Positions 1 to 19,900 of a DNA stretch of 64,000 bases are shown in pieces; the stretch's first letter is position 1, and the number at the start of each line of letters is the position of its first letter. The DNA is from an uncultured Flavobacteriales bacterium (lineage in GTDB: Bacteria > Bacteroidota > Bacteroidia > Flavobacteriales_C > GCA-002722245). The notes beneath the pieces were generated by a model that was given only the letters and a program-made list of their open reading frames with translations, had not been told where the DNA came from and made no database searches. Both the position numbers and the translations under genes were made by a program. The stretch covers positions 3,638 through 67,637 of the forward strand of contig CAWVWF010000001.1 in NCBI GenBank assembly GCA_963933885.1, written 5' to 3'.

Positions 1-151
1 CTAAAATTCCATTTATTAAACCTAATTTCACAGCAGCTAAACTTGTATATGTTCCTGATGGTCCAACAGTATATGTCCCTGGATTTAACCCTGCCGCGTG
101 TGTCAATATAGATGTAGACAGGGCAATAAGTAGGAGTGATAATTTTTTCAT
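1..151 (-). CDS. 5' fragment of a secreted protein; the gene continues beyond the window start
   Basis: The reverse strand has an ATG at 149-151 followed by MKKLSLLLIALSTSILTHAAGLNPGTYTVGPSG..., a typical n-h-c signal peptide. The reading frame stays open to position 1. It is not in the ORF track because it is partial. Confidence 0.35.
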   Translation of the reverse strand, partial: MKKLSLLLIALSTSILTHAAGLNPGTYTVGPSGTYTSLAAVKLGLINGIL

Positions 152-277
152 AATAAAGGTCTTGAATTCCTAAAAGTCTACTACGGTTTTTCCCGCAAAA
201 AAGTTATAAGAAATACTGAACTATTTATTAGCTTGAATTATGATTTATTCATAAAGGAAATATTTCTTTAGAAGACC

Positions 278-748
278 TTATTTTTCTATCATATCATAAA
301 TCGTTTCCAAATCAAAAGTTAAACTCAATCGGTTTTTCCAAATCGAATTAAAGTCCTTCACAAAATGGAAATTGTAAGAGTAGCTAAGTTCAGTAAAGTA
401 TAAATTGAAGCCTATTTTTGGTCCTAGCGTAAATAATGATCCTTCATCAGTGTTCCAATATTGAGTGGCAAGTCCAAACATTAAAATATAATAAGCTGAA
501 GATTCAAATCTAACATTGAATTTATTATTACTTGCACCGTTTATATCTGTTGAAAGTTTAAATTCTGCTCCTAATGGCGGACAACCGGGACAATCTGCTA
601 AATATCGATATCGAAGCCCCGTATTGAATTGCCAATTTTGTTGATAGTTTATGCCTACATATGGAGCTAATGTCCATTCATCTAATTCCAAAGAGGCCTC
701 GCTATTGAAGGAAAGAGAAATCAAAAATATGAACAATAGGTTTTTCAA
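278..748 (-). CDS. small secreted or outer-membrane protein, possibly a beta-barrel; function unknown
   Basis: 156 aa with an N-terminal signal peptide (MKNLLFIFLISLSFNSEA). Aromatic-rich alternating stretches end in F/Y-rich strands. There is an unusual CPGCPP motif. No catalytic motif was recognised. Confidence 0.5.
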   Translation of the reverse strand: MKNLLFIFLISLSFNSEASLELDEWTLAPYVGINYQQNWQFNTGLRYRYLADCPGCPPLGAEFKLSTDINGASNNKFNVRFESSAYYILMFGLATQYWNTDEGSLFTLGPKIGFNLYFTELSYSYNFHFVKDFNSIWKNRLSLTFDLETIYDMIEK

Positions 749-813
749 GATCTTGGGATTTATTCTTGAATACTAAAGTAAAGCTTTTCTTCAAAAGTTC
801 GTTTCAAGCTCTT

Positions 814-875
814 CGTACTTCTTGATTTGAGTGAAACGGTAATCTAGAAAGTAAAAGATCCGATTTTCAATCGGT
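814..875. repeat. copy A of a ~60 nt conserved intergenic element
   Basis: cgtacttcttgatttgagtgaaacggtaatctagaaagtaaaagatccgattttcaatcggt. About 83% identical to copy B. It contains a small hairpin ccgatt/aatcgg. Confidence 0.6.
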
Positions 876-994
876 ATTATACATAAAACAAAAAGTACAA
901 TGATAATTAGCCATTTTCTTAAACATCTTGCGATTAGGATTAAAAAGGTTATTTTTGCACTCGGAATATCAAACTATTATAACCTGTTTATTGC

Positions 995-2533
995 ATGAAA
1001 AAAGTACTTAACTTATTTGATTTAACTCAAAAGGTAAATATCAAAACAGAAGTTTTAGCAGGTTTAACGGTTGCTATGACTATGATTCCTGAATCATTAT
1101 CATTTGCAATTCTAGCTGGTTTCCCTCCGTTGATGGGATTATACGCTGCTTTCATTGCAGGTTTAGTTACCGCTGTTTTTGGAGGAAGACCAGGGATGAT
1201 TTCGGGTGGAGCTGGTGCAACAGTAATTGTTTTGATGGCTTTAATGAAATCAAATGGGATTGAATATGTTCTTGCGGCAGTTGCTTTAGCAGGAGTAGTT
1301 CAAATTTTGATAGGAGCATTTAAGCTGGGTAAATTTATTCGTTTGGTTCCGCATCCAGTAATGTTTGGATTTGTAAATGGTTTAGCCATTATTATATTCA
1401 TGTCTCAAATGGATCAATTTCAAATAGATGTTAATGGTAACATGGAATGGCTTACTGGAACACCAATGTTAATTATGGGTGGTTTAGTTGCTTTAACTAT
1501 TGCAATTGTTGTGTTATTACCTAAACTTACTAAGGCGGTCCCATCTTCACTAGTAGCGATAATAGTAGTTTTCTTACTTGTATATTTCTTTAATATAGAT
1601 ACAAAAACAGTAAAAGATATTGCATCAATAAGTGGAGGTTTTCCTCCGTTTCATATTCCTCAAATCGCTTTAACTTGGGAAACTTTTGAGATAATTGCTC
1701 CACCTGCTATGATTATGGCAGCGGTAGGATTAACAGAAGGTTTACTTACTTTAAACTTAGTTGACGAGATTACTGAAACGAAAGGAGATGGAAACAGAGA
1801 GTGTATTGCTCAAGGAAGTTCTAACATACTTAACGGGTTTTTCTTCGGAATGGGAGGTTGTCCTATGATTGCTCAAACACTGGTTAATTTATCAGCTGGA
1901 TCAAGGGCACGTTTATCAGGTATAGTTGCATCATTAACGATTTTATTGATTGTATTGGTTGGTGCTCCAGTAATTGAATTGGTTCCAATGGCAGCATTGG
2001 TTGGGGTTATGGTTATGGTTGCATTCGGAACATTTGAATGGGCTACACTTAGAATATTCAACAAGATGCCTATTAGCGATGTTTTATTAGTAATAATCGT
2101 TGCAGCAATAACAGTTATCCTTCATAATTTAGCCTTTGCTGTATTGATTGGAGTTATAATTTCTGCATTGTTTTTCGCTTGGGAAAGTGCTAAAAGAATT
2201 AGAGCTAAGAAATACATTGATGAGAATGGAGTTAAGCATTATGAGATCTACGGTCCACTGTTTTTCGCTTCTACAACTACGTTTACAGAGAAGTTTGATG
2301 TTTCAAATGATCCTAATGAAATAATTATAGACTTTAAAGAAAGTCGTGTTTCTGATATGTCGGCGATTGAAGCTTTAAACGTTGTAACTAGCCGTTATCA
2401 TAAGGCGGGAAAGAAGGTTCACTTAAGACACTTAAGTAACGATTGTATTGCGTTATTAAAGAACGCTGAAGCGATTATTGATGTTAACATCATGGAAGAT
2501 CCAACTTACAAGTTACCTGTAGATCAGGCTTAA
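995..2533 (+). CDS. SulP-family inorganic anion transporter (sulfate/bicarbonate permease) with a C-terminal STAS domain
   Basis: The N-terminus GLTVAMTMIPESLSFAILAGFPPLMGLYAAF is the SulP signature region. Multiple TM helices follow. The C-terminal ~130 aa soluble domain (YEIYGPLFFASTT...VSDMSAIEALN) is STAS-like. Confidence 0.9.
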   Translation: MKKVLNLFDLTQKVNIKTEVLAGLTVAMTMIPESLSFAILAGFPPLMGLYAAFIAGLVTAVFGGRPGMISGGAGATVIVLMALMKSNGIEYVLAAVALAGVVQILIGAFKLGKFIRLVPHPVMFGFVNGLAIIIFMSQMDQFQIDVNGNMEWLTGTPMLIMGGLVALTIAIVVLLPKLTKAVPSSLVAIIVVFLLVYFFNIDTKTVKDIASISGGFPPFHIPQIALTWETFEIIAPPAMIMAAVGLTEGLLTLNLVDEITETKGDGNRECIAQGSSNILNGFFFGMGGCPMIAQTLVNLSAGSRARLSGIVASLTILLIVLVGAPVIELVPMAALVGVMVMVAFGTFEWATLRIFNKMPISDVLLVIIVAAITVILHNLAFAVLIGVIISALFFAWESAKRIRAKKYIDENGVKHYEIYGPLFFASTTTFTEKFDVSNDPNEIIIDFKESRVSDMSAIEALNVVTSRYHKAGKKVHLRHLSNDCIALLKNAEAIIDVNIMEDPTYKLPVDQA

Positions 2534-2542
2534 TTTTAGATC

Positions 2543-3184
2543 ATGAAAAAATTTGCCTTAATAATATTTACATTATTCTTTAGTCTACAATCTTTCGCAG
2601 GTGCTAAAAACCTACGTTTAATACCAAAAATGGCTGTTGCTTTATACTTAGGTATTGAAAACCAAGTACAGCTGATTGGTGATAAAATAGACTTGAAAGA
2701 TGTTGTCTTAGATTGTAACGACCTGGTTATTTCTGAAGCAAAAGGTAATGCTCAATTTATAGTTTTGTGCAAGGACAAAGAAAGAACAGAAGTAAAAATT
2801 ACAATTAGAAGTAAGGCGGGAAAGAAGCTTGGTAAGCTAAAAGTTATATTCATTCCAATACCCAATCCCCAGGCAACTGTATTAGGCTTAAAGAGTGGTG
2901 AAATCACTAAAAAACAATGTGATAAAGCCAAAAAACTAAAGATTGAAATGGTTGATTTCCCTTTCGATATTAAAGTTGAATTGGTGAGGTTCACAATGAA
3001 AATGTTTGTTGGAGGTGACATTATTGAGTTTCGTAACAAAGGCGAAAAGTTTAATGGTGCAATGACTAAATGGTTAGGTAAAGTTAAGCGTGGTGCAACA
3101 ATAACTTTTGATAACATTGAAGTTGAAATGCCAAACGGCGAGAAAAGAACAATCGCTCCATTAGTATTTAATTTAGTCGAATAG
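2543..3184 (+). CDS. secreted two-domain protein of unknown function, internally duplicated
   Basis: Signal peptide MKKFALIIFTLFFSLQSFA. Two roughly 90 aa Lys-rich halves of similar beta-rich pattern (…KITIRSKAGKKLGKLKVIFIP… and …VELVRFTMKMFVGGDIIEF…TITFDNIEVEMPNGEKRTIAPLVF). It sits 10 bp downstream of the SulP gene on the same strand. Confidence 0.55.
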   Translation: MKKFALIIFTLFFSLQSFAGAKNLRLIPKMAVALYLGIENQVQLIGDKIDLKDVVLDCNDLVISEAKGNAQFIVLCKDKERTEVKITIRSKAGKKLGKLKVIFIPIPNPQATVLGLKSGEITKKQCDKAKKLKIEMVDFPFDIKVELVRFTMKMFVGGDIIEFRNKGEKFNGAMTKWLGKVKRGATITFDNIEVEMPNGEKRTIAPLVFNLVE

Positions 3185-3313
3185 TACCAAGAAATTAACT
3201 CCTCAATTAATCACCTTATCAACCTAAACGGGCACTCTACTTTAAGAATAGGGCAGTCTGTCAATTTCATATTTTAAACAGAGTGAATTTAGATACTTTT
3301 ACCAAAAAAAAGC

Positions 3314-5341
3314 ATGTCTAAGATTCTTACAATTTTCTTTTCAGCAATATCTCTTTTCAGTTTCGCTCAATGTCCTTCTGGAAATGTAGTACTTAACAAC
3401 CAAGCCGAATTAGACGCTTTTGCAATTTCACATGCTGGCTGTACTAGTTTTACTGGAAATCTTGAAATAAAAGACACGCAATTAAAAGATATAACAGACC
3501 TATCGGCATTAACTAATTTAGATACGATTTGGGGGGATTTAATCTTTACTTATCTCCGTCAACCTATCGATTTGAATGCATTATCAAATCTGAAATATGT
3601 TTCGGGTGCTTTATCAATTACAGAATGTGATAGTTTACCTTCTCTTGAAGGATTAAACAATTTAACAGAAATTGGTGGAGAGTTTACAATTTACAGATGT
3701 GATTCTCTTGAAAGCTTAGCTGGTTTAGATAATCTGACGACTATTGGATCAACAAGAATATTTGATTCAAAAAAATTAAGTGTTTTAAGTGGAGTTCCTA
3801 ATCTAACAAGATGTTTAGGTGATTTCAAACTAGAGAATTCAAGAGTCACTGATCTAACAGGACTGGAAGCTCTTGAGACAATTGGAGGAGGATTAACTCT
3901 AAATTACAATTACCTATTAACTAGTTTTAATGGTCTTACCAATTTAGATTCAATACTTGGAAGGTTTTACATTACAAAGAATAACAAATTAACAACTACC
4001 CAAGGTGTTGTTGCTCTGCGATCAATTGGATCGTTAGAGATTTTGAGGAATGATAAATTGGCAATGATCGACTTTCCTACTTTATCATATGTAAAAAGTT
4101 CAATTACAGTAGAAGACAGTGATTCAATAAAAAATTTCCTTCCTGGAATGCCAAGCTTAATAGAACTGAATGGATACTTACAAGTATATAATACACCTAT
4201 AGAAAGCTTTTTAGGACTTGAATCTTTAGTTAAAATTAAAAGCGGACTTTACGCCTTGCTATGTCCTGATTTTACAGGATTTTACGGATTAGAAAACTTA
4301 GATACGATTGAAGGAACGATGTCTTTATCTCAATGTCATATGGTTACTGATTTTGAAGGTATTAGTTCATTGAAAACTGTTAATGATCTTAACATTATTA
4401 ATAATTTAAGACTTAAAAATGTTAACTGTTTCTCTCAACTTACAAGCGCAAAAAATATCACTATTAAAGAATGTGATAGCTTAGTAAGTATTGACTCTTT
4501 ACATAATATTACTTCTGTAACTGATGTACTTACTCTTAAAGACAATCCTTTACTAGCCAGTTTAAATGGTTTAGAAAACTTGGCACTGGCAGAAGCTATT
4601 TCTTTATTCAATTTGCCAAAACTAACATCTGTTTCTCCTCTATCTAAAATTAAAGTGCTTCATGAAGGTTTTCTTGTTTACAATACAGGAATAAAAGACT
4701 TTACTGGAATGTCTCAATTAGACTCAATAAATGAGTTGTTTTATGTTCAGTACTGTGATTCTCTTGAATCATTTAATGGGTTATCGAACTTGAAATTTAT
4801 CGGTTCAGACTTTATCGTAAGTAATGATTCAAACTTAGTTGATATGACTGGATTATCTAGCTTAACAACAATAACTGATTTAATTGAAATTTACGAAAAT
4901 CCTAAACTTGTTTCAATAGAAGGATTAGAAAATCTAGCTATATCCGTTGATGCAGATGTTGAAATATATGATAACGATTTACTTACTTTCTGTGCGATAA
5001 CAAGTGTTTGTGATTACTTAGCACTAAATCCTGGAGGTTCTGATATTTATGATAACGCAACTGGTTGTGATAATGAAACTGAAATACAAAATGAATGTTC
5101 TGTTACCTCTGTAGTTGATATTAAAGCAACGTTTACTGTTTACCCTAACCCATTTAATAATTATCTAACTGTAGAAGGGATGAATGAACATTCAAGTTAT
5201 ACTGTAACAGATATATCTGGTAGGACAATAATCACATCAAATTCTGAAAGCATAAATACGGCGGGATGGAACAAAGGAGTTTACTTCTTTAAAGTGATGG
5301 ATAATAATCAATCCTTTACATACCAACTTGTGAAACGTTAA
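3314..5341 (+). CDS. T9SS-secreted repeat protein (receptor-L-domain/LRR-like repeats) with a type-A Por C-terminal sorting domain
   Basis: Signal peptide. At least 20 irregular repeats of ~22-25 aa with the L-x-x-L-x-x-I-x-G/N-L pattern (…LTNLDTIWGDLIF…, …LNNLTEIGGEFTI…). The last ~75 aa (TFTVYPNPFNNYLTVEG…GVYFFKV…) match the T9SS type-A CTD. Confidence 0.8.
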   Translation: MSKILTIFFSAISLFSFAQCPSGNVVLNNQAELDAFAISHAGCTSFTGNLEIKDTQLKDITDLSALTNLDTIWGDLIFTYLRQPIDLNALSNLKYVSGALSITECDSLPSLEGLNNLTEIGGEFTIYRCDSLESLAGLDNLTTIGSTRIFDSKKLSVLSGVPNLTRCLGDFKLENSRVTDLTGLEALETIGGGLTLNYNYLLTSFNGLTNLDSILGRFYITKNNKLTTTQGVVALRSIGSLEILRNDKLAMIDFPTLSYVKSSITVEDSDSIKNFLPGMPSLIELNGYLQVYNTPIESFLGLESLVKIKSGLYALLCPDFTGFYGLENLDTIEGTMSLSQCHMVTDFEGISSLKTVNDLNIINNLRLKNVNCFSQLTSAKNITIKECDSLVSIDSLHNITSVTDVLTLKDNPLLASLNGLENLALAEAISLFNLPKLTSVSPLSKIKVLHEGFLVYNTGIKDFTGMSQLDSINELFYVQYCDSLESFNGLSNLKFIGSDFIVSNDSNLVDMTGLSSLTTITDLIEIYENPKLVSIEGLENLAISVDADVEIYDNDLLTFCAITSVCDYLALNPGGSDIYDNATGCDNETEIQNECSVTSVVDIKATFTVYPNPFNNYLTVEGMNEHSSYTVTDISGRTIITSNSESINTAGWNKGVYFFKVMDNNQSFTYQLVKR

Positions 5342-5541
5342 ATAAAGGTCTTACAAGTTATTTTTGGTATTCGCACGACACCTTATACTTGATATCTTAA
5401 TATTCCTGTACTTTCGAATGTTTAATTTCTTTTGTTTATTTACATTAACCAACTTTACAAGCCGTATACTACAAAATAAATCCCTGTCTTGGTTATCAAT
5501 AAAGTAGAAGTATAGTAATCCTATTTCTATTTGGCCTTATT

Positions 5542-8067
5542 TTACCTTTTCACTTTAAGCACTTTAAACCATTGGTTATCATTTGAATTTACTGCTTTCA
5601 CAAAATAAACGCCCTCTGATAATGTATTAGGAAATAGAATTGAATACGCATCTGATGCTTGTAAAACCAGTTTTCCGAAGTTATCATAAACCTCAATCTG
5701 ATCGATGGCTCTATTGAAGTTTAACCTATCAAAAACAGGGTTTGGAAATGCAGTGATTTCTGACTTTTTCACAGCCTTTGAAGATGTTAAGACACTAACA
5801 CAAAAATTCTCTGAAGACGTTGATGAATACTCGGCTACTGTTAAAGTTGAGATTACTGAGTTCTGAGATTTGTTTTCTAATTTAAAGTAATCCGTTTGAG
5901 TTGGTTCCGGACAAGCTCCTAAGTCGTTATAATAATGAGGGTAAGCGTTTGGTGGAGCCGACCAGATTTGATTTTTTGCTTCATAAACTTTTCCTTGGAA
6001 AACGAATTTTTCTCCAGTTTCATAAATCGTTGAAGTATTGTATTCTGAAAACATACTACATAAATCCTCTAAAAATGCGTCGTTAATTTCGAAATCATAA
6101 CACACGTTTTCTTCCAAACAGAATTCCTGAGATTGTAAATTATTAGCTGTTGTGCTGCTTACGCTATTGTATGACTTAACTGACGTGTTGTTATCTGAAA
6201 TATCCCATGAAAGACTAGTAGACATTGATCCTGTAGAAATGTCGAATTGAAATAACTGACCAGCTTGCATGTTGAAATTTTGCTCAAATACATTATTTGA
6301 AGGAATCTCATCAATTACACCATTAGGTAAACTTAATACTACTGTGATATCCTGATCACCAAAGTTGGAAATAGGAAAAGTATTTAACGTTAATACTGAA
6401 CTTGTTCCACTTCCAATGGAAACTTGATGATTTTGATTGTAAACCTCAACAGTGTTTAATGAAACAGAAACGTTAACACTCGACAAGATCTTAGAACCTC
6501 CATTCAAAATTTCAATTTCAGGTGCCAATGAATTCCCACACGTTTTAGTGGATATATTATTAATTCCAACAATTGCAGCATCGTTCTCTTTTTGTTGAAT
6601 TCCTTCAATCGTACCCGAAATTTCAAACTGTCCGAGCGAAGAATAATCAGTCCATTTTGTAGCTGCACTTCCTGCTCCAACCCCATCCATACTTAGGTAG
6701 TAATCACCACTAACTAGAACTTTACTAATGTTAACTGCCTGTGTGAAATCAGCATCGTTGTTTGTATACTTTTGAATCAAATTCCCTGAAGCGTCCAATA
6801 ATTCAATCTCAAAATCTAAGTTAGGTTTAGGTAAACCTGTAGCTGCTACATCAAGGTTAATTGAACCTCCAGCAACATAGAAGTGGAATACATCTTTATC
6901 TGTTCTTCTTTCAATAATCCCTTTATTCTTGTTTAATACCGCTACACCTTGTCCGTTTAAACTGTAATCTATTTCGGAAGCAGAGCCAATTGTATTTCCA
7001 TGATCATCTGCTCTATATCCTCCAACTGCATCTTGAATTATCCAAGTATCATCATCGGTAGTGTTTGTTGCATTCGCGTAATCTCCGATACTCCATTGTG
7101 TTAATGGAAGATAATATGAAACACCCATGATAGGTGCCCAAACACCATGTCCTTTATAGTATGCACCATCACCAGAGCTACCATCGTGCGACAACCCTAA
7201 AGTATGTCCAGCTTCGTGAGATCCTGCTTCTGCAGCTCTAACTGAGTTTCCAAATCCATCAGTAAATACCCAGCAAACTTCGGTAGCATTCCAATTAAAA
7301 CTTCCTCTTAAAGCAACTCCTCCTCCTGGAGACCAATAGGATGTTGGTGTAAAAACTACTCTCGTTTTCCATCCGTTTGGTGCGGCATTATAAACCGCTT
7401 CATTAGTTGTTACATTAACATCAAAAGGAGCGTAATCTTCAACTAAAACATACCAAGCAGTTAACATATCAATATCACTCCATCCAGTTCCAGCAGCGTT
7501 TAATGAAGCCCCACTATTCCATGGCGTTCCGGATGGAAGATTGTATCCATCCATATCACAGTAAATTACCGCTGTAGCTCCTGGATTACTATTTAAATCA
7601 TATGGATCCCAAGCGTATTCTTTTAGTGAATCTAATTGCGCTGTTGTAAGGGCTGATTCTTCATCATCTAACGCTCCTTGATGTCCTTTAAACCCTCTAC
7701 AGATCAATTTATCAACGTTGATGACTTTGGATATAACTTCTCCTGATTTTGATGTTTTTAATGAATAAGCTTCATGCTCAGAAACAATTACAAAACCTTC
7801 TAGTTCTTGGTCTCTGTTGTATCCTAAAACAAATAAGGAAGCTTTACCTTTTAACTTTCCTAATACTTGCTGTTCTCCTCTTTTATATAAATCGATTTCG
7901 ATTTTCTTCGTTGTAGATACTTGAAGTTTCGTTGTACTGGATCTACCATGTAAACTCGTAAACAATGTTTCAGCATCGCCTAGCGAAAATGAACTGGTAT
8001 CTTGTGATCTTCCTACAAAATTCGCGAAAATAATCCCTCCTAATAAAAGTACTTTAAGTCTTAGCAT
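5542..8067 (-). CDS. zinc metalloprotease (metzincin, reprolysin-like HExxHxxGxxHD) with pre-peptidase beta-sandwich domains and a T9SS type-A CTD
   Basis: HEAGHTLGLSHDG is the zinc-binding motif. The C-terminus AFPNPVFDRLNF…GVYFVKAV…KVLKVKR is a Por sorting domain. The track ORF extends to 8157 via a TTG start. I moved the start to the ATG at 8065-8067 because the signal peptide MLRLKVLLLGGIIFANFVG follows it. Confidence 0.8.
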   Translation of the reverse strand: MLRLKVLLLGGIIFANFVGRSQDTSSFSLGDAETLFTSLHGRSSTTKLQVSTTKKIEIDLYKRGEQQVLGKLKGKASLFVLGYNRDQELEGFVIVSEHEAYSLKTSKSGEVISKVINVDKLICRGFKGHQGALDDEESALTTAQLDSLKEYAWDPYDLNSNPGATAVIYCDMDGYNLPSGTPWNSGASLNAAGTGWSDIDMLTAWYVLVEDYAPFDVNVTTNEAVYNAAPNGWKTRVVFTPTSYWSPGGGVALRGSFNWNATEVCWVFTDGFGNSVRAAEAGSHEAGHTLGLSHDGSSGDGAYYKGHGVWAPIMGVSYYLPLTQWSIGDYANATNTTDDDTWIIQDAVGGYRADDHGNTIGSASEIDYSLNGQGVAVLNKNKGIIERRTDKDVFHFYVAGGSINLDVAATGLPKPNLDFEIELLDASGNLIQKYTNNDADFTQAVNISKVLVSGDYYLSMDGVGAGSAATKWTDYSSLGQFEISGTIEGIQQKENDAAIVGINNISTKTCGNSLAPEIEILNGGSKILSSVNVSVSLNTVEVYNQNHQVSIGSGTSSVLTLNTFPISNFGDQDITVVLSLPNGVIDEIPSNNVFEQNFNMQAGQLFQFDISTGSMSTSLSWDISDNNTSVKSYNSVSSTTANNLQSQEFCLEENVCYDFEINDAFLEDLCSMFSEYNTSTIYETGEKFVFQGKVYEAKNQIWSAPPNAYPHYYNDLGACPEPTQTDYFKLENKSQNSVISTLTVAEYSSTSSENFCVSVLTSSKAVKKSEITAFPNPVFDRLNFNRAIDQIEVYDNFGKLVLQASDAYSILFPNTLSEGVYFVKAVNSNDNQWFKVLKVKR

Positions 8068-8296
8068 AGTTCTGTTTTTTAAGAATCGTTTTACTTTGGT
8101 AAGTAAAAGTGAAGTTTCCAAAATCATCAAATAGAAAAACATATCGATCCACACCAAATTTATTGATAGTGAAGATGTTAAACAGAACGAAAAATATTAA
8201 AAATGATATTTCAAGGAAGGGTGATTTATAGATTGAGTTCGTGTATTGTTGCGATATAAAACAGTATATTTTTAAGAGGAAAATCATCCTTAAGGC

Positions 8297-8324
8297 TGTT
8301 CTGAAAACAGGTGTTTTCAGAACA
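8297..8324. promoter_or_regulatory. 28 bp perfect palindrome (13+2+13), a candidate operator or structured RNA hairpin
   Basis: TGTTCTGAAAACA GG TGTTTTCAGAACA. The arms are exact reverse complements. It lies in a 490 bp gene-free gap upstream of the metalloprotease gene. Confidence 0.4.
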
Positions 8325-8373
8325 ACTTTACCACGCCTATATATAATAAATGCAGGTACTTAGAGCATGTTTC

Positions 8374-8400
8374 ACTTTGGTGACAGTCACCAAAGTTTTT
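8374..8400 (+). terminator. intrinsic terminator-like hairpin (11 bp stem, 1-nt centre, T5 tail) with no upstream + strand CDS
   Basis: actttggtgac a gtcaccaaagt followed by ttttt. Confidence 0.4.
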
Positions 8401-8451
8401 ATGGGGTTAATTGAAGCTCTCTCCAAAACTAATTATAGATCCACCGTATAC

Positions 8452-8511
8452 CGTACTTTTTGATTTAGCGAAGCGTAATCTAAAAGGTAAAAGTTCCGAT
8501 TTGTAATCGGT
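8452..8511. repeat. copy B of the ~60 nt conserved intergenic element
   Basis: cgtactttttgatttagcgaagcgtaatctaaaaggtaaaagttccgatttgtaatcggt. Same orientation as copy A, 7.6 kb away. Confidence 0.6.
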
Positions 8512-8647
8512 GTTTAATCAGTTTAAATTTATTTAATTAGAAATATCAGAAGATAGGGATTGCTTAAAACTAGAGCTTCGAGCTAATATGATTATTTATT
8601 TGTCGTATTACTTACTAGGGGCCTGACCCTATAGCACTCTATAGCAC

Positions 8648-9079
8648 TCATGGATTTTGAGCTCTGTACAAAGTAAAAGTTATCGTTTTTGTTACAGTTT
8701 GATTATTTGAATTCGTGTATACTGAAGATCCCTCAAAAACAAACTTGTCTGCAGAAATTGATACAATTTTATATTCATCAAAAAATTCAGTTAATCCTAT
8801 AATATTAACGGTATTAGCTGTGCAAGACCAAGTACAGTTTAATCCTGGGGAAAAACAAACTTTAGCATAAAGATCTTTTGCTGTTTCAAAATCAAATTGT
8901 GTTATAGAAGTCGTTTTTGAAGATGACCCGTTTCCAGTCTCTTCGAAATCTCTTTTCGTTCCTGATTCCCAAACGCCAACTATTTGGTCACTTACTAATT
9001 CAGCTTCATTAACTTCTTCTTCCTTCTTACAGGAAAATAATGCGAGTGTAATTAAACAAAATGCGAATAAATTTTTCAT
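8648..9079 (-). CDS. small lipoprotein, function unknown
   Basis: MKNLFAFCLITLALFSC has a lipobox (LFSC). It is ~143 aa mature. The start was trimmed from 9106 to the ATG at 9077-9079 in front of the signal peptide. Confidence 0.55.
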   Translation of the reverse strand: MKNLFAFCLITLALFSCKKEEEVNEAELVSDQIVGVWESGTKRDFEETGNGSSSKTTSITQFDFETAKDLYAKVCFSPGLNCTWSCTANTVNIIGLTEFFDEYKIVSISADKFVFEGSSVYTNSNNQTVTKTITFTLYRAQNP

Positions 9080-9334
9080 AATTTTTAGGTTGCGGTTTAA
9101 AGACATAATTCAGCATCTAAAAAAAGATACATGAAATATTATACTTTATAATACAAAACGCTTCGAAGCACCCTTAACAACTAACTGGCATATGTCTAAA
9201 AAAATAATATGTGATAGTGTAATTTGTATTTGAAATACAATTAAGTAATTCCATTACTTACTCCAGTATAATTTCGAGAAGGTGATTTCTCCCGATTCCT
9301 TATTATTAAACTTAATAGAAATTGGTTTTGTATT

Positions 9335-9355
9335 GCTCATCATAATATGATGAGC
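9335..9355. promoter_or_regulatory. 21 bp perfect palindrome, a candidate operator
   Basis: GCTCATCATA A TATGATGAGC, about 225 bp upstream of the lipoprotein gene 8648..9079 (-). Confidence 0.3.
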
Positions 9356-9460
9356 ATTCAGATTGAGTCTATGTAAATCTTATAGCACAACGAATTTAAT
9401 AGTTATGACTGAATTGATGCCTTTTAAAAAGTAGTTATTGACGCTTGTAGTTATTGGAAT

Positions 9461-9496
9461 AAAAAAAGGCTGTAATCCTAAGATTACAGCCTTTTG
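9461..9496 (-). terminator. bidirectional rho-independent terminator, strongest for the minus-strand BNR gene
   Basis: aaaaaaa ggctgtaatc ctaa gattacagcc ttttg. On the minus strand the stem is followed by T7. It lies 19 bp after the stop of 9515..12850. Confidence 0.55.
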
Positions 9497-9514
9497 AAAT
9501 TATTTTATTGATAC

Positions 9515-12500
9515 TTATCTTTTTTGAATTTCTGCTGTATAGCTTTTTTCTGGCGTTGTTAACCTTAGCACATACAATCCAGTTTGGAACTTAGAAACAT
9601 CGATTGTTGCTGTTCCAGTTAATTGCCCTGTAGCAACAACTTTTCCTTGCACGTCAAACATTTCCCAACTTGCTGTTTCCAAACGACCATCTGTTTTTAA
9701 TGTTAAAACATCTTGCATTGGATTCGGAAACAATTGAACACCTGCTAATTCTAAATCAGAAACACCTACACATAAATCAAGTGTTGCTGTTATTTCTACC
9801 CTGTCACTCGGACAGTCAACTTGATCTTCTTCAACCAACCAGTTATAGAAATAATAATAATATTCCAATTCTACTCCACTTGCTGTTCCATTCGTTATTG
9901 AAAGGATATTACTGATTGGAAAAGGAAAGTCTGTAAAAGCACTGTTCCTAAATAATTCTACACTTGCTCCACCAATTTTCTCACAAGTAACAACATAATC
10001 AGAACCTTGTGGAATTTTCCAATCTAAAGTTACTGTGCTCTTTCCATCAGGTACGCTGACTGTTACATTTTCTAATACATTTCCATTACCATCTGTAAGT
10101 ACAAAATTTCTATTTCCAGCACCAGAAGCATAAACTTCAAACGTTCTTAAAACCATGTCTTTGAAAACATCGAATACTAAACCATAACCACCGGCATGAG
10201 AAACACCTGCTGATAAAGTATTATCTAAAGCTCCACCATTCGTAAGGGTATTTAAACCTGATGATTGCTGAACAAAGAAAGAAGTTGTTTGATTTAAATT
10301 AGTTGTATAATCTATTCCTTCGAAGATTGAAGTTGGAGAAGTATTCGTAGCATACCATTTAATGGCACCTACTGAATTATCTACTGATAATTTCACACTT
10401 GCTCCTGCTGAACAAAAGATCTCATTAGAAACGTTTGGATTACTTGCTTTTACTTGTACAGTTACTTCGATAATATCAGAAACTACTGTTTCTCCGGCAC
10501 TAGTAACTTCAACTGAATAGTCTGCTGTTTCATCAACCACTAAAGTAGAACTTGTTTTACCAACAATATCTCCACCGTTTTTAAGCCATTGATATGTATA
10601 ATCATTGTCTTGAACAGCCTCCAATGTAATTGTATTCCCTTCACAAAATGTTGTTTCAGAATTACTTGTTACTGAAGCATCAATTTGATTACTCGTTGCA
10701 TAAGTTGGAGCAGACCACATACCTCTACCGTATGTACCTGCGTAGATTCTATTATCAATATAATTGATTTCAATTTCGTTTACTTGAACGTTTGGTAAAT
10801 TGTCTTGATAATCAATGTAATTAGACATAGCATCGTTGATATAATAAACTCCACTATACATCCCTACATACAACCCATGTTCAGGTCCTTTTTCGAAAGC
10901 GACACATAAAGAAGATAAACCTGGAAGGTTTAATTTTTGAGAATTCCATGAAGTACCTCCATCTGTAGAAATATAAACTTTTTCACCCCCTGTAGTTGCA
11001 ACTGCAATATAATTAGGATCGTCTGGATGAATGCTTATAAAATTTATACTTCCTAGATTTGACGTAACTAATGTCCATGAAGTTCCTGCATCTATTGATT
11101 TAGAAAGAGAAGATTCTTTCGATGCAAACATAATTGATGGATTTGTCTCAGAAATCGTTAATTGATCACATTTCCCTGATCCACTTGGTGTACCTAAAGC
11201 CGTACCTGATCCAGTAGTAAAGGAATACCTAGACACACTAGTATAACCTACATAAAAGATATCTGCACTGGTTGGATGTTGTACAATTGGTGTAACCCAA
11301 TTTCCTGCATCACTACTTAATCCATTTTGTGATTGACCACCATTAGTTGTCTTATATAAATTACCATTTTGAGATGTTCCTATTTGATTATCTGGATTAT
11401 CCCAACTTACAAATGCGTCCATTCCATCTGCTCCTAACCATTCTCTCCAAATATAATTACTACCATATGTTGATGCTGTACCGTTATCTTGTGCTCCTCC
11501 AACAACAACATTTGGATTGTTTTTCCCAACTCCAATTTTATAAAACTGACGAACATTTAAGCCGTTACTTAAGTTTTTAAAAGTAGCTTCACTGTTCTCA
11601 CTAACTGAGATTCCTCCATCAGTTCCAGTATATAAATTACTTCCTATCCATTCCAAAGTATGGATATCTGCATGAATATATTTTGCCCCAGCTGAAGAAT
11701 ACAGCCAAGGAACATAAAGAGAGAAATTAGTACCACCATTCGTTGAACGATATAATTCCATTCCTCCTAAATAAATTTTTGTAGGGTCTTGAGCTGAAAC
11801 TGCTAAATCAATTCCATACCAAGCATAAGCCTCAAGATAATCAGTTGAACTTTGATTTATGATTGTAAATGATTGTCCGTTGTTTGTTGATTTAGACAAA
11901 GTACCGAATTCATATCCATCTGCCTGCATATACCAAACACTATTTGGTTCTGCCGGACAAATTGCGATTCTTCCATAACCTGTATTAGCTCCTGCAGCAA
12001 TTTGAGACCATGTTTGTCCTCCATTTGTTGATCTGTAAAAGTTATACCTTCCTGCAGCATAAACATAACTTTGATCAGTTGGATGATACTCTAAATCAAG
12101 GAAATTTCCTGATTCCATTGAATTCCATGTATCCCCATTATCGGTAGATTTAAAAATCCCATAAGCTCCACAAGCTAATAATACATTTGGATCACTAGCG
12201 TCCGCTTTAATTTTTGTTGTACTTGATGAAAATACTTTTGTCCATGAACTACCTGCATCTGTAGATTTAAAAATTCCTTGATCGGTTCCTATAAAATAAG
12301 TATCGGCATCGTTAGGAGAAATTAAACAACCTAACATGTTTAAAGTTGAAAGTTTATCTGTAAGTGGTGTCCAATTCGCTCCTTGATCTAATGTAGACCA
12401 TACTCCTCCAGAAGGAGCTCCTGCTAAAATATGATTGGCATTTGAAGGATTAACACTAATACATTCTACCCTTCCTACTCCTGGATTCCAACTTGAAGTT

Positions 12501-12850
12501 GGGTTTCTAGTTGTTGGTCCAAGTTCAGTCCATAAAGACTGTCCTCTTTGCGTTAAGCTAGATCCAGATCTATTCGTACTTTTCTTAAATTTATCGATTT
12601 CGTTGAAAGCATTTTTCCTCCAATTAATCTTTCCATTTACATCAGCATCTCGCTTAGCAAAGTATAGCCATCGCTGAAATTGCTTGTACCCAGATCCTTT
12701 TCCTTGGTAACGGTTCTCAAAATAATCGTTTGCTTCTGTGCTAATTTGCTCTATAGTATACATTTCACTTTCAATCATCTCCCAATGTTTTTGAGCGAAT
12801 GATGAAAATGACAATACTAGGGCGGTAGCAATTGTTAACGTAATTTTCAT
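9515..12850 (-). CDS. BNR/Asp-box repeat beta-propeller protein (sortilin/VPS10- or GH74-like fold) with Ig-like domains and a T9SS type-A CTD
   Basis: At least 8 Asp-box motifs S/T-x-D/N-x-G-x-S/T-W/F (STDAGSSW, STDNGDTW, STNGGQTW, STNGGQSF, STNGGTNF, TTNGGQSQ, SIDAGTSW, STDGGTSW). Signal peptide. C-terminal LFPNPMQDVLTL…GLYVLRLTT…AEIQKR sorting domain. Confidence 0.85.
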   Translation of the reverse strand: MKITLTIATALVLSFSSFAQKHWEMIESEMYTIEQISTEANDYFENRYQGKGSGYKQFQRWLYFAKRDADVNGKINWRKNAFNEIDKFKKSTNRSGSSLTQRGQSLWTELGPTTRNPTSSWNPGVGRVECISVNPSNANHILAGAPSGGVWSTLDQGANWTPLTDKLSTLNMLGCLISPNDADTYFIGTDQGIFKSTDAGSSWTKVFSSSTTKIKADASDPNVLLACGAYGIFKSTDNGDTWNSMESGNFLDLEYHPTDQSYVYAAGRYNFYRSTNGGQTWSQIAAGANTGYGRIAICPAEPNSVWYMQADGYEFGTLSKSTNNGQSFTIINQSSTDYLEAYAWYGIDLAVSAQDPTKIYLGGMELYRSTNGGTNFSLYVPWLYSSAGAKYIHADIHTLEWIGSNLYTGTDGGISVSENSEATFKNLSNGLNVRQFYKIGVGKNNPNVVVGGAQDNGTASTYGSNYIWREWLGADGMDAFVSWDNPDNQIGTSQNGNLYKTTNGGQSQNGLSSDAGNWVTPIVQHPTSADIFYVGYTSVSRYSFTTGSGTALGTPSGSGKCDQLTISETNPSIMFASKESSLSKSIDAGTSWTLVTSNLGSINFISIHPDDPNYIAVATTGGEKVYISTDGGTSWNSQKLNLPGLSSLCVAFEKGPEHGLYVGMYSGVYYINDAMSNYIDYQDNLPNVQVNEIEINYIDNRIYAGTYGRGMWSAPTYATSNQIDASVTSNSETTFCEGNTITLEAVQDNDYTYQWLKNGGDIVGKTSSTLVVDETADYSVEVTSAGETVVSDIIEVTVQVKASNPNVSNEIFCSAGASVKLSVDNSVGAIKWYATNTSPTSIFEGIDYTTNLNQTTSFFVQQSSGLNTLTNGGALDNTLSAGVSHAGGYGLVFDVFKDMVLRTFEVYASGAGNRNFVLTDGNGNVLENVTVSVPDGKSTVTLDWKIPQGSDYVVTCEKIGGASVELFRNSAFTDFPFPISNILSITNGTASGVELEYYYYFYNWLVEEDQVDCPSDRVEITATLDLCVGVSDLELAGVQLFPNPMQDVLTLKTDGRLETASWEMFDVQGKVVATGQLTGTATIDVSKFQTGLYVLRLTTPEKSYTAEIQKR

Positions 12851-16919: not shown

Positions 16920-19900
16920 CTACCTCAATACATTAACGTGACCCACCTTTTGTTTTCGTCTTGGTTTTCCATCTGGATGATTCATTGAGTAGTATATTTT
17001 ATATACATATGTATCTATCTGAACTTCTCTTCCCATGTACGTTCCATCCCAATCTACAAACATAGATTCAGACTCATAGATTTGTTGTCCCCATCTGTTA
17101 AAAATATACATGTGATAATCCGTTATGTTATGTCCTTTAGCATTAAACGAATCGTTAATTCCATCACCATTCGGGCTGAAAGTATTTGGTATATATAACG
17201 CGCTTGGACAAAATTCATTAAATGTAATACGATCAGTAATAAAACAATTTCCAACACTAATTTGAACTACATAAGTTCCTGCTGATTGAATCGTAATATC
17301 AGATGTTGAATCAGTTGTTCCCCACAAATAATCATAACTCTGATCTGTACCAGCACTAATATTAAAACCTCTATCTGTAAGCTCTTCAAAACAGAAGTAC
17401 TTATTATCTAACGAATGATCTATACCACTTGTAGGCAATGGAACTACATTAACATTAATGGTATCTGTTGAAGAACATAGCTCGTTGCTTACACTTATAA
17501 TATGCGTATTTGTTTGGTTTACATCAAATACTGTTTCAGTTTGACTATCATTCCATGTATAATTTAAGCCTGAAATTCCAGCATCGATAGTTCCTGTTTC
17601 ACCCTCACAAAGATTGATATCTGGTCCTAAATCCACAACTGGAATTGGAACAAAAATTACGTTAACAGTATCTTTTCCGACACAACCTTCTGGTGTTTCA
17701 ACATTGAGAATATAATCGTTAGATCCAGTCGCAGTTATTTGTGAAACCGTATCTGTAGTTGACCATAAGTACGATAGGTTTTGATCTCCCCCTATATCAC
17801 TTACATTAACTAATGTTCCATCACAAACTTTGATATCGGGACCCAAATCAGGATTAGGATTATCGTTTAAAATCACCTCAACAAAAGTTGAGTTTTTACA
17901 ACCTGTAGCAACATTTGTTACTTCCTGATCGAAGATACCTCCAGTAAATACTGTTATTTGAGCAGTTTGCTCAGCGGTACTCCAAACATAATCGAATTGG
18001 TTTCCTTTATCATTTCCTATGACAACAGAATCTCCATTACAAATCGCAGCCTTTGAAGGAGTTACTATTGGTAAAGGATGAACTTCTACTTCTACAATAG
18101 CATCTCCTTCACAACCTTTTCCATCGTCAACATGAACAATATACAATCCACTTGTATCAACGTTAATTACATCTGTTGTTTCATTTGTAGACCATGTGAA
18201 ATTGTAATTATCCACACTTTTATAATTTGGAATTAAATCTACATTCTCACCAATACACAAATCTATTTTCGGTGCGTTGGCAATTGTAACACTCAAGTTT
18301 TGTTCAATCGTAATTTCTGCAGAATCTCTTCCTACACATCCATAAGCATCTGTAATATCCACCCAAGTCCATTCTTTATATGCAGCAATATATGTACTGT
18401 ACTTACTCCTATCATGCCATTCATAAGTATATGGCCCATTTCCATTGTCGAATCCTGAAGCATCTAGCGTTGCCTTCATCCCTGGACACATTGCAACATC
18501 GAATATCACATCAGGTTTTGGAAGTGGAATTACAATTAATTCAACTGTATCTTGAGCAACACAACCATTTGAATCAGTTACTTCAACATCATAAATCCCA
18601 GGTCTTGTTGTATTATATGAATCCTTATCTGAATAATTAAACCATTCATATTTCGCATAAGTTCCTGGTGTAAAAGCTACGCTAGAAGCATTCTCACAAA
18701 TTGTTATATCCAGGCCTAAATCCGGAGTTGGTAGAGGGTTTACAACAAGTACAACAGTATCGCTTCCGGGACACCCCTGAGCATCGATAAAATCAACTGT
18801 GTATTCTCCTGCTTGATTTGTTTGAAAACTACTGATGGTATCTCCAGTATTCCAAATGTATGTTTCGAAACCTAATCCAGCATCAAAAATAACTTCTGAA
18901 TCACCTGCACATATTACTTGATCCTGCATGTTAACTAAAGGCATCTGATTTACTTTTAAGTACATTGTATCGTATCCTAAACAACCATTTGAATCTGTTA
19001 AAATCAGACTATAGTCGCCTTCATCATGGATTTGTATAGATGAAGTAGTAGAATCGTTACTCCATAAATAAGTTGCTTTTGTAAATCCGGTAGTCAATTG
19101 AACTGCTGGGTCCATTGAACAAATTTCTTCATCTGGTCCTATACTTACAATTGGATTAGGATTTACCACAAGTTCCACTGTTGTATCATTTACACAACCA
19201 TTAGAATCGGTTACTTCAATATGGTAAGAATTACCTGCGTTTGTAGATAAAAGCTGATCTACACTTAAACCATTTTGCCAGTTGTAAGAAAGGTAAACAC
19301 CAGCATCCAAAGTTACAGGACTATCGCCATCGCAAATTGTATCGTTTGGAACGTAAGGGATAGGTAGTAAATTTACAATCAACTCAAACGATGTATCGGC
19401 TTTACAACCATTACTATCCGTTACTTCGACTGTATAAACACCACCATCCTTACTGCTGAAAACCGAATCATTATTATTACCATTCCAATCGTAAATATCA
19501 TAATCTCCAACACTAAATTCTACTATTGAATCGCCTTCACAAATCGTATCGTTAGCAACATATGGAATTGGCAATACATTTACTATTAGTTCGAAACTTG
19601 TATCTGATATACATCCATTATCATCCATTACTTCAACGGTATAGACTCCAGAAGCATCTAATTGGATAGTTTGCGTTGTATCATTCGTGCTCCATAAGAA
19701 AGAAGTATAACTCCCAGCGTCGAAAACCACAGGTCCTCCTCCTTCACATATTGTATCATTTGATATAAAAGGAATCGGCTTTGGATTAACTACTAACTCA
19801 AAACTCGTATCCGATACACAACCGTTACTATCTGTTACTTCGATTGTATAGCGTCCTGCTGAATCAAGGTTAATAGTTTGTGTTGAATCTTGCGTACTCC

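Follow-up and report, generated by a model that had tools for sequence, protein, structure and literature searches.

The two copies of a conserved intergenic element in the 64-kb window, i.e. the whole stretch of flavobacterial DNA that was analysed, are ordinary members of a dispersed family of hairpin-forming REP (repetitive extragenic palindromic) repeats and do not delimit a gene cassette. Very probably, both copies (A and B in Table 1) are solitary REP units of a lineage-specific REP/REPIN family that is owned by a RAYT (REP-associated tyrosine transposase) of TnpA(REP) subclass 2.6, a domesticated transposase that would spread the units through the genome of this marine flavobacterium. 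As already noticed in the first-pass annotation, A and B lie at the positions given there and have the same orientation; they are identical at 52 of 62 aligned positions (84%). The absence of a third copy from the window was likewise confirmed, by a scan with a degenerate core and by nhmmer searches with HMMs built from 2 and from 14 copies. This 28-base degenerate core, GTAATCTARAARGTAAAAGWTCCGATTT, matches only A and B in the 64 kb when up to 3 mismatches are allowed, and it gave 0 matches in 100 dinucleotide shuffles. Both copies are intergenic, and the genes between them are those that had been named before, coding for SulP, a protein with a GldM_4th domain and two proteins bearing T9SS sorting tails. 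Paralogous neighbour genes were considered as well, but the 156-aa and 152-aa proteins encoded beside A and B show no relationship to each other (E=5).

Table 1. Positions and make-up of REP units A and B and of their hairpins in the window
Feature	Position	Strand	Description
REP unit A	814..875	+	Solitary, "long-loop" subtype; CGTAC foot, hairpin 1, AAAAGAT spacer, hairpin 2; nhmmer E=4e-17
Hairpin 1, unit A	816..853	+	TACTTCTTGATT/AATCTAGAAAGTA pairing with one bulge and one T.T mismatch; DNA and RNA folds
Apex mini-hairpin, unit A hairpin 1	831-837		GTGAAAC
Hairpin 2, unit A	860..874	+	CCGATT-TTC-AATCGG; folds and pair counts
REP unit B	8452..8511	+	Solitary, "AGCGAAGCG-loop" subtype; nhmmer E=6e-18
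Hairpin 1, unit B	8454..8489	+	TACTTTTTGATT/AATCTAAAAGGTA pairing; DNA fold z=-3.35 for B
Apex mini-hairpin, unit B hairpin 1	8468-8474		GCGAAGC
Hairpin 2, unit B	8496..8510	+	CCGATT-TGT-AATCGG; folds and pair counts

A unit of this family is about 52-65 nt long and consists of a (C)GTAC foot, an imperfect hairpin 1, a short A-rich spacer and hairpin 2, for which the consensus is CCGATT-N3-4-AATCGG. The latter hairpin had been recognized before and is indeed present in both copies as CCGATT-N3-AATCGG, but the larger hairpin 1 had been missed. The T-rich tract that was described next to hairpin 2 on the minus strand does exist (CTTTTAC), but it is really the 3' arm of hairpin 1 as read on the opposite strand. 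This hairpin is often capped by a GNA-triloop mini-hairpin, and its apex varies from GTGAAAC to GCGAAGC between units. The hairpin structure is maintained across units: for the 17 proposed pairs in 28 distinct units, 97.3% of the cells are paired, versus 29-53% when the partners are slid, and in the helix of hairpin 1 this value is 97.7%, with two covarying pairs. The compensatory changes found in two pairs (T-A in 16 and C-G in 10 units; T-A in 24 and C-G in 4 units) are drawn from few subfamilies and thus reflect few independent events. Folded as DNA, A reaches z=-1.9, as compared to the -3.35 of B. The foot (C)GTAC is found in nearly all units and reads GTAA on contig L030, and the canonical GT[AG]G is absent. 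By eye, an excess of AC is seen 5' of the foot.

Many additional copies exist beyond the window, which bears out the earlier proposal of a conserved, hairpin-bearing intergenic element family and, because of their number, also settles the concern raised with it that there might be two copies only. The contig L009 is a twin of the window from the same organism, being 99.99% identical over 11.5 kb, and it carries three further units within 1.3 kb immediately upstream of window position 1, so that 5 units are found in 13 kb of the contig to which the window belongs. An exact-pattern scan of metagenomes matched 16 contigs, of which a single TARA sample contributed 13, and L023 from this same sample is identical to the copy-B region. 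With nhmmer, about 42 distinct sites were found on short contigs that had been chosen via the repeat itself and stem mostly from one TARA sample; many of these sites are situated at contig ends. All of them lie between long open frames, except for two minor overlaps with short, probably spurious frames. A search of genome contigs with the pattern CTANAANGTAAAAGNTCCGATT, which demanded the minority spacer GTAAAAG, gave a chance match in a Lachnospiraceae MAG only.

Some of these units enclose a gene for a RAYT. On L014, L028 and L029, and also on L025, the order is a unit on the plus strand, an ORF of 184 aa, and a unit on the minus strand, which is a REPtron-like arrangement, and on the first three of these contigs the bracketing units are of the AGCGAAGCG-loop subtype of unit B. 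The 184-aa protein passes the NCBIfam model NF047646, "REP-associated tyrosine transposase", with 92.9 bits (cut-off 80), and it matches Pfam Y1_Tnp with 28.9 and 32.6 bits (cut-off 23). According to the passages of Quentin et al. 2018 (PMC6006769) that deal with TnpA(REP) subclass 2.6, an enzyme of this subclass has about 179 aa, an NH[LIV]H HuH motif and a YIH[QN]NP Y motif, and the length of the 184-aa protein (P0121) as well as its motifs NHIH and YIHQNP fit this description. A PDB search with the single RAYT sequence gave nothing, the enzyme being too diverged, and the E. coli TnpA-REP structure 4ER8 was reached only by a profile of 20 homologues, for which it is the best match (E=5.7e-7); ISDra2 TnpA structures are also matched by this profile, weakly. 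A RAYT that is 58% identical is encoded on L030, where the inverted flanking units follow the same two-hairpin plan with re-written stems, namely ATTTCAGATT/AATCTGAAAT and GCGATT/AATCGC or GGCATT/AATGCC.

As the enzyme belongs to the Y1_Tnp superfamily, it could be asked whether the units are ends of an autonomous IS200/IS605-type element, with A and B as solo ends or PATE-like derivatives. In one metagenome, two RAYT variants that are 79% identical occur, each with its own flanking units, which may indicate some autonomous, IS-like behaviour, and like IS608 and ISDra2 the system has subterminal hairpins and lacks target duplications; by analogy, it would also share the HuH/Y1 chemistry on single-stranded DNA. 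We give this origin a slim chance, as the protein reaches only 25.7 bits with the IS200 equivalog model NF033573 (cut-off 55), whereas the RAYT model is passed, and as its Y motif has the class 2 form YIHQNP and not Y[IV]ENQ. Moreover, both flanks consist of the same sequence in inverted orientation instead of distinct, directly oriented left and right ends, and in the loci examined the short units are far more numerous than the genes.

Neither the window nor L009 contains the RAYT gene. We infer that this gene belongs to the genome of the window from co-occurrence in two assemblies, from composition and from the common repeat family, rather than from a single contig or bin. L029 with its RAYT gene and the window twin L009 come from the common assembly ERZ27292849 (ENA), and L014, which likewise carries the gene, shares a TARA assembly with L023. 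The composition agrees as well, with a GC content of 0.330 against 0.335 and a tetranucleotide correlation of r=0.98. A cluster look-up gave no accession that joins RAYT and window in one bin, and exact-protein look-ups gave no record for the window SulP, for P0001 (its 100% match) or for P0122.

While A and B are singlets, the family elsewhere has doublets, and both forms are equally common. The doublets are inverted tail-to-tail with the feet outward, like REPINs and BIMEs, and convergent unit pairs of this kind with 23-55 nt between the units were found on L015, L016, L019, L009 and L028. The doublet on L016 folds into a long hairpin with -32.8 kcal/mol (z=-8.5). Since the doublets span 140-190 bp and their inverted ends CGTACTTYTTGATTT...AAATCAARAAGTACG look perfect, they resemble a MITE, i.e. 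an element that carries terminal inverted repeats but is not autonomous and depends on a DDE transposase acting in trans, and indeed a DDE_Tnp_IS1595 gene adjoins SulP on the relative's contig L010. This contig, however, is devoid of any unit, and the gene that is actually found between inverted units codes for a Y1/HuH RAYT and not for a DDE enzyme. As furthermore no target-site duplication was seen by eye beside the doublets and singlets (about 38 units), and as single units are as frequent as doublets, we think that a MITE is highly improbable.

Recombination target sites had also been considered for A and B; being att-like or attC-like, they would enclose a mobile 7.6 kb block with genes for secreted proteins. 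Two direct repeats around DNA that is partly missing from relatives would suit this idea, and the comparison of L028 with L029 demonstrates that units can bound indels, as two direct doublets there bracket a 314-nt segment that is missing from the other contig. Related genomes nevertheless speak against it, and we regard a cassette as extremely unlikely. SulP lies inside the supposed block and yet is the conserved anchor that stays put in L010 and L011, and the DNA that is specific to the window relative to these contigs falls into two separate indels (~201-911 and ~2536-8658), the edges of which are not at the units. The three additional units on L009 are situated immediately outside of the block. 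A and B are of different subtypes, and each of them resembles copies elsewhere more closely than it resembles its counterpart, A being 95% identical to a copy on L015 and B 94% and 92.5% identical to two RAYT-flanking units, which argues against a cassette; they arrived at their present sites independently. A strain that lacks exactly 876-8451 and retains one hybrid unit was not found among the related genomes compared. In the eight large ORFs of 278-12850, Pfam detected neither a recombinase nor an integrase domain; an integron attC was rejected on this ground, together with the lack of visible R'/R'' core sites and the varying orientation of the units. The window has no tRNA or tmRNA gene, and an att site as tRNA/tmRNA remnant was therefore also rejected.

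Maintained hairpins could also serve the transcript, and the first-pass annotation had suggested a small RNA or 3'-UTR family. A cis-acting RNA family of this kind, comprising small RNAs or 3' UTR terminators or stabilizers, could explain why the two hairpins are kept with compensatory changes. It would also agree with units D and E on L009, which follow stop codons at a distance of 12 and 55 nt on the strand of the gene, and with the flagging of hairpin 2 in a terminator scan; classical REPs, too, stabilize upstream mRNA. We nonetheless consider it very unlikely that the units are maintained for such a function. No Rfam family was matched in the whole window at the gathering score, and with permissive E-values the best scores for both regions were 11-19 bits against thresholds of 29-101. 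As RNA, the units show no unusual fold stability (z -0.4 to -1.4), and the orientation relative to genes is inconsistent, as A is located between divergent genes and B is directed against the gene that it follows. In the terminator scan, the strand on which hairpin 2 was flagged differed between the copies (minus for A, plus for B), with a stem of only 3 G-C pairs and inconsistent gene placement, and neither the inverted doublets nor the pair around the transposase gene would be explained. As REPs can have RNA-level effects as a by-product, a small RNA or 3'-UTR role keeps a small residual chance. The binding site for a transcription factor or ECF sigma factor that had been proposed as another option did not hold up: copies occur in both orientations relative to neighbouring genes and on either side of them, form inverted doublets and surround a transposase gene, which does not fit a promoter element, and promoter-like sites are not in excess over the shuffled background. 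Since none of the orthologous SulP loci at 90-95% protein identity (L002-L008, L010, L011) has a unit, the element is not a conserved SulP leader either.

With A and B as solitary units of a RAYT-owned REP family, the closest known systems are the REPs of subclass 2.6. In the passages mentioned, Quentin et al. (PMC6006769) report this subclass mainly from Bacteroidetes, with atypical REPs that lack GTAG and whose structures are described just as "atypical" and "weaker"; it corresponds to RAYT group 5 in the relevant part of Bertels et al. 2017 (PMC5581495). Our system shares the Bacteroidota host, the enzyme of about 180 aa that contains NH[LIV]H and YIH[QN]NP, the gene between inverted atypical hairpin repeats without GT[AG]G, and the copies scattered elsewhere. 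It differs in that this particular repeat sequence does not appear in those passages of PMC6006769, in that the unit is resolved here into two hairpins, with GTAC as foot and a GNA triloop in the cap, in that doublets combine two unit subtypes, and in that the conserved W precedes K and not Q in P0121 and P0122. The REP/BIME elements of E. coli and the REPINs of Pseudomonas, which belong to RAYT subclasses 2.2 and 2.5, are similar as extragenic imperfect palindromes with bulges that occur as singlets and, combining two unit subtypes (Y/Z-like), as inverted doublets, with a RAYT between inverted units (REPtron) and without target duplications. Their foot, however, is GTAG or GTGG instead of GTAC, a unit has one hairpin and 20-40 nt instead of two hairpins and about 60 nt, and the hosts are gammaproteobacteria instead of a flavobacterium.

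By analogy to E. coli TnpA-REP and to IS200/IS605, the RAYT, as a TnpA-REP of the HuH/Y1 type, would recognize the folded hairpins on single-stranded DNA, cut at the foot and then rejoin the ends, and units or doublets would thereby be copied or moved to other intergenic sites without target duplications. Cleavage and rejoining of REPs on single-stranded DNA are described in the parts of PMC6006769 considered here for E. coli TnpA-REP only and for no subclass 2.6 enzyme. Local effects, such as transcript termination or stabilization or the use as recombination substrate, would be secondary.

A further-reaching view is that the family represents a distinct REP architecture, in which a GTAC foot is combined with two hairpins and a GCGAAGC-type DNA mini-hairpin as ultra-stable cap, and a living REPIN population in an uncultured marine flavobacterium. 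Its copies would actively shape the accessory genome by being located at edges of lineage-specific insertions, in this case T9SS cargo genes in a block of 6.1 kb and a small outer-membrane-like gene, and by causing indels through doublet recombination as between L028 and L029. We think that this is rather unlikely, but if true, the REPIN-RAYT "genomic symbiont" picture would reach far past the Gammaproteobacteria. A contribution of the repeats to the turnover of secreted-protein genes is hinted at by the indel that doublets bound and by the location of A and B close to where strain-specific DNA ends; we take this as a lead only. More concretely, the analysis provides a covariation-supported unit model for subclass 2.6, consisting of foot, two hairpins and GNA-triloop cap, together with a candidate cognate enzyme, a RAYT that lacks the GTAG-reading residues.

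Genome annotations should treat these 60-mers as REP repeats to be masked, rather than list them as sRNAs, promoters or att sites, and the REP units explain why metagenome assemblies of this organism break into short contigs there.

The two repeats of about 60 nt that the first-pass annotation had picked out, here called A and B, belong to a family of structured repeats that are scattered through extragenic DNA and have a REPtron-like cognate RAYT (REP-associated tyrosine transposase; REP, repetitive extragenic palindrome; a REPtron is a RAYT gene bracketed by inverted REPs). The feature is real and its purpose had been misread; it represents an undescribed sequence family inside a known kind of system. 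Both copies lie on the same strand, are intergenic and agree at 52 of 62 aligned positions. The absence of a third copy from the window was borne out, as a 28-base degenerate core with up to three mismatches matches A and B only (100 dinucleotide shuffles gave no match), and profile searches agree.

Coordinates of units, neighbouring genes and further features
Feature	Contig	Position	Strand	Remark
156-aa signal-peptide protein	window	278-748	minus	borders A on one side
Unit A	window	814-875
SulP	window	995-2533	plus	borders A on other side
Unit B	window	8452-8511
152-aa lipoprotein-like gene	window	8648-9106	minus	B 137 nt past its stop
Non-REP hairpins	window	8293-8327, 8374-8396, 9464-9495
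Repeat arrays	window	17600-20900		diverged ~207-213 nt repeats
Doublets	L028	8992-9627		two, direct
Doublet	L029	8932-9092		one
Long-variant units	L009	1097-1150, 55-1
Long-variant unit	L017	16-80
GTAG palindromes	L033	9592-9613, 10551-10572		flank RAYT

Upstream of an 871-aa T9SS cargo gene, B lies about 385 nt from where this gene probably starts. This ORF is listed with a TTG start at 8157, and since the signal-peptide-like MLRLKVLLLGGIIFANF begins 30 codons later, the true start is probably an ATG near 8067, which enlarges the intergenic region with B to about 580 nt. These intergenic stretches also hold three strong non-REP hairpins: one with an 11-bp stem, one whose 10-bp stem precedes a plus-strand TTTTTAT at a place where no gene of that strand ends, and one with a 14-bp stem that resembles a bidirectional terminator. 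Elsewhere in the window, long arrays of repeats with 60-74% identity suggest, from their period, tandem domains of about 70 aa in a putative coding region.

Outside the window, many more copies were found. A SulP search led to the window's twin contig L009, which is 99.99% identical to window 1-11489, reaches 4.7 kb further upstream and carries three more units inside its first 1.3 kb, two of them inverted and tail to tail within the same intergenic gap. A pattern spanning the larger hairpin of the unit matched 16 metagenome contigs. A single TARA assembly accounts for 13 of these and also contains L023, a contig that is identical to the region of copy B. With an HMM made from 14 units, about 42 distinct sites were found in the loci examined. 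Many units lie no more than about 150 nt from a contig end, which is what a repeat that breaks assemblies would produce. Among species-representative genomes, a pattern requiring a minority spacer variant gave a single chance match, and the organism is evidently outside this collection. As to the proposed small RNA or 3'-UTR family, Rfam returned nothing at the gathering score and only noise in a permissive search, so A and B represent no known RNA family; no tRNA or tmRNA gene was found in the window.

Each unit consists of a (C)GTAC foot, a larger hairpin 1, a short spacer and hairpin 2, the CCGATT-N3-AATCGG hairpin noticed before. Hairpin 1, on the 5' side of hairpin 2, is formed by TACTTYTTGATT and AATCTARAAGGTA and includes one bulged G and one T.T mismatch; the T-rich tract previously seen on the minus strand is present but is simply the complement of the 3' arm of hairpin 1. 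The tip reads GTGAAAC in A and GCGAAGC in B; d(GCGAAGC) is the classic example of a highly stable DNA mini-hairpin with a GNA triloop. Over 28 distinct units, 97.3% of the cells of the 17 proposed pairs are paired, compared with 29-53% with slid partners, which indicates that the structure is maintained across the family. Two adjacent hairpin 1 pairs swap T-A for C-G (16 versus 10 and 24 versus 4 units), but these swaps mark subfamilies and therefore represent few events. Independent support comes from L030, the locus of a RAYT only 58% identical, which is flanked by 65-nt inverted units of like plan with both stems rewritten (ATTTCAGATT/AATCTGAAAT with a GCGCAGC cap, and GCGATT/AATCGC or GGCATT/AATGCC).

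Some units stand alone and others converge in doublets, 23-55 nt apart and with their CGTAC feet on the outside, usually a long-loop unit with a short-loop one; the doublet on L016 folds as a single long hairpin (-32.8 kcal/mol, z=-8.5). Their orientation relative to neighbouring genes is inconsistent, and no target-site duplications were seen by eye in the unit flanks. At roughly a third of sites on L009 and L012-L029, the two bases before the foot are AC (e.g. ACAC|CGTAC, CTAC|CGTAC), which could mean that certain target sites are preferred or that the conserved foot is slightly longer. In the long variants, about 49-55 nt of conserved sequence (ATTCAATTGTATTAATTACGGGAATCATTT.TTCGTTTCACTCGG.AGT) are inserted in the loop of hairpin 2. 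Within this insert, CGTTTCACTC is the complement of GAGTGAAACG, the tip of long-loop units; the insert could have arisen by nested insertion or be a third family module.

On L014, on L028 and L029 (both longer contigs) and also on L025, an ORF of 184 aa lies between two inverted units, of which the left precedes the start by about 100 nt and the right follows the stop after 2-5 nt. The two ORFs, 79% identical, pass Pfam Y1_Tnp and the NCBIfam equivalog model for REP-associated tyrosine transposases (92.9 bits, cut-off 80) and fail the IS200 model. The best solved relative, found with a profile of 20 homologues, is E. coli TnpA-REP (PDB 4ER8, E=5.7e-7), and database homologues throughout Bacteroidota already carry the names "REP-associated tyrosine transposase" or "RayT". 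No RAYT gene was found in the window itself, and we therefore infer that it belongs to the same genome: L029 and L009 share one ENA assembly, as do L014 and L023 one TARA assembly; GC content (0.330 against 0.335) and tetranucleotide usage (r=0.98) match; and the two RAYT-flanking units share 94% and 92.5% identity with B. By analogy to E. coli TnpA-REP and IS200/IS605, the enzyme would recognise the folded unit on single-stranded DNA, cleave at the foot and rejoin, so that units and doublets would spread.

Quentin et al. 2018 (PMC6006769) define TnpA(Y1) subclass 2.6 (group 5 in the RAYT scheme of Bertels et al. 2017) as mostly Bacteroidetes proteins of 179 aa on average with NH[LIV]H and YIH[QN]NP motifs, whose repeats lack the GT[AG]G consensus and are less strongly structured. 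The present enzyme (NHIH, YIHQNP, 184 aa) and its units (GTAC foot, imperfect hairpins) fit this description. Around group 5 genes, the flanking 16-mers have about the same frequency as those around insertion sequences (Bertels et al. 2017, PMC5581495). Canonical GTAG-footed palindromes of 22 nt (TTTGTAGCTGTAAGCTACAAAC) flank a more distant RAYT, 49% identical, on L033 of Flavobacteriales genome GCA_016861005.1; repeat and enzyme therefore co-vary, and Bacteroidota relatives of the present RAYT can have canonical GTAG REPs as well as atypical flanks. An rve-type integrase gene adjoins the RAYT on L033. The finding is of use mainly for correct annotation and as a case that resolves well what a Bacteroidota REP looks like, a group so far poorly characterised.

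It had also been suggested that A and B bracket a 7.6-kb cassette. A shares 95% identity with a unit on L015, and B 94% with the RAYT-flanking units, whereas A and B share only 84%; each is therefore an independent member of its own subtype, and a local duplication was rejected on the same values. At two relatives' loci, L010 and L011 (SulP 95% and 91% identical), homology begins at window position 911 in the SulP leader, and neither carries a unit. L010 has about 85 nt in place of 201-911 (156-aa gene and A) and about 370 nt in place of the 6.1 kb at 2536-8658 (GldM_4th protein, two T9SS cargo genes encoding an LRR and the 871-aa protein, and B). An IS1595-type transposase gene adjoins SulP there, and on L011 SulP directly abuts a sortilin-type T9SS gene. 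In both relatives this locus lacks the 156-aa gene and the 6.1-kb block. SulP is thus a fixed anchor between two separate variable segments, and A and B each lie within one of these, near its right edge. No indel of the following type was found for A and B. On L028, two REPIN-like doublets (inverted REP pairs; 161 nt, 97.5% identical) surround a 314-nt segment, which is missing from L029 with its one doublet, the rest being about 99.4% identical. This looks like a deletion or insertion through doublet recombination, with a scaffolding artefact possible; units can bound indels.
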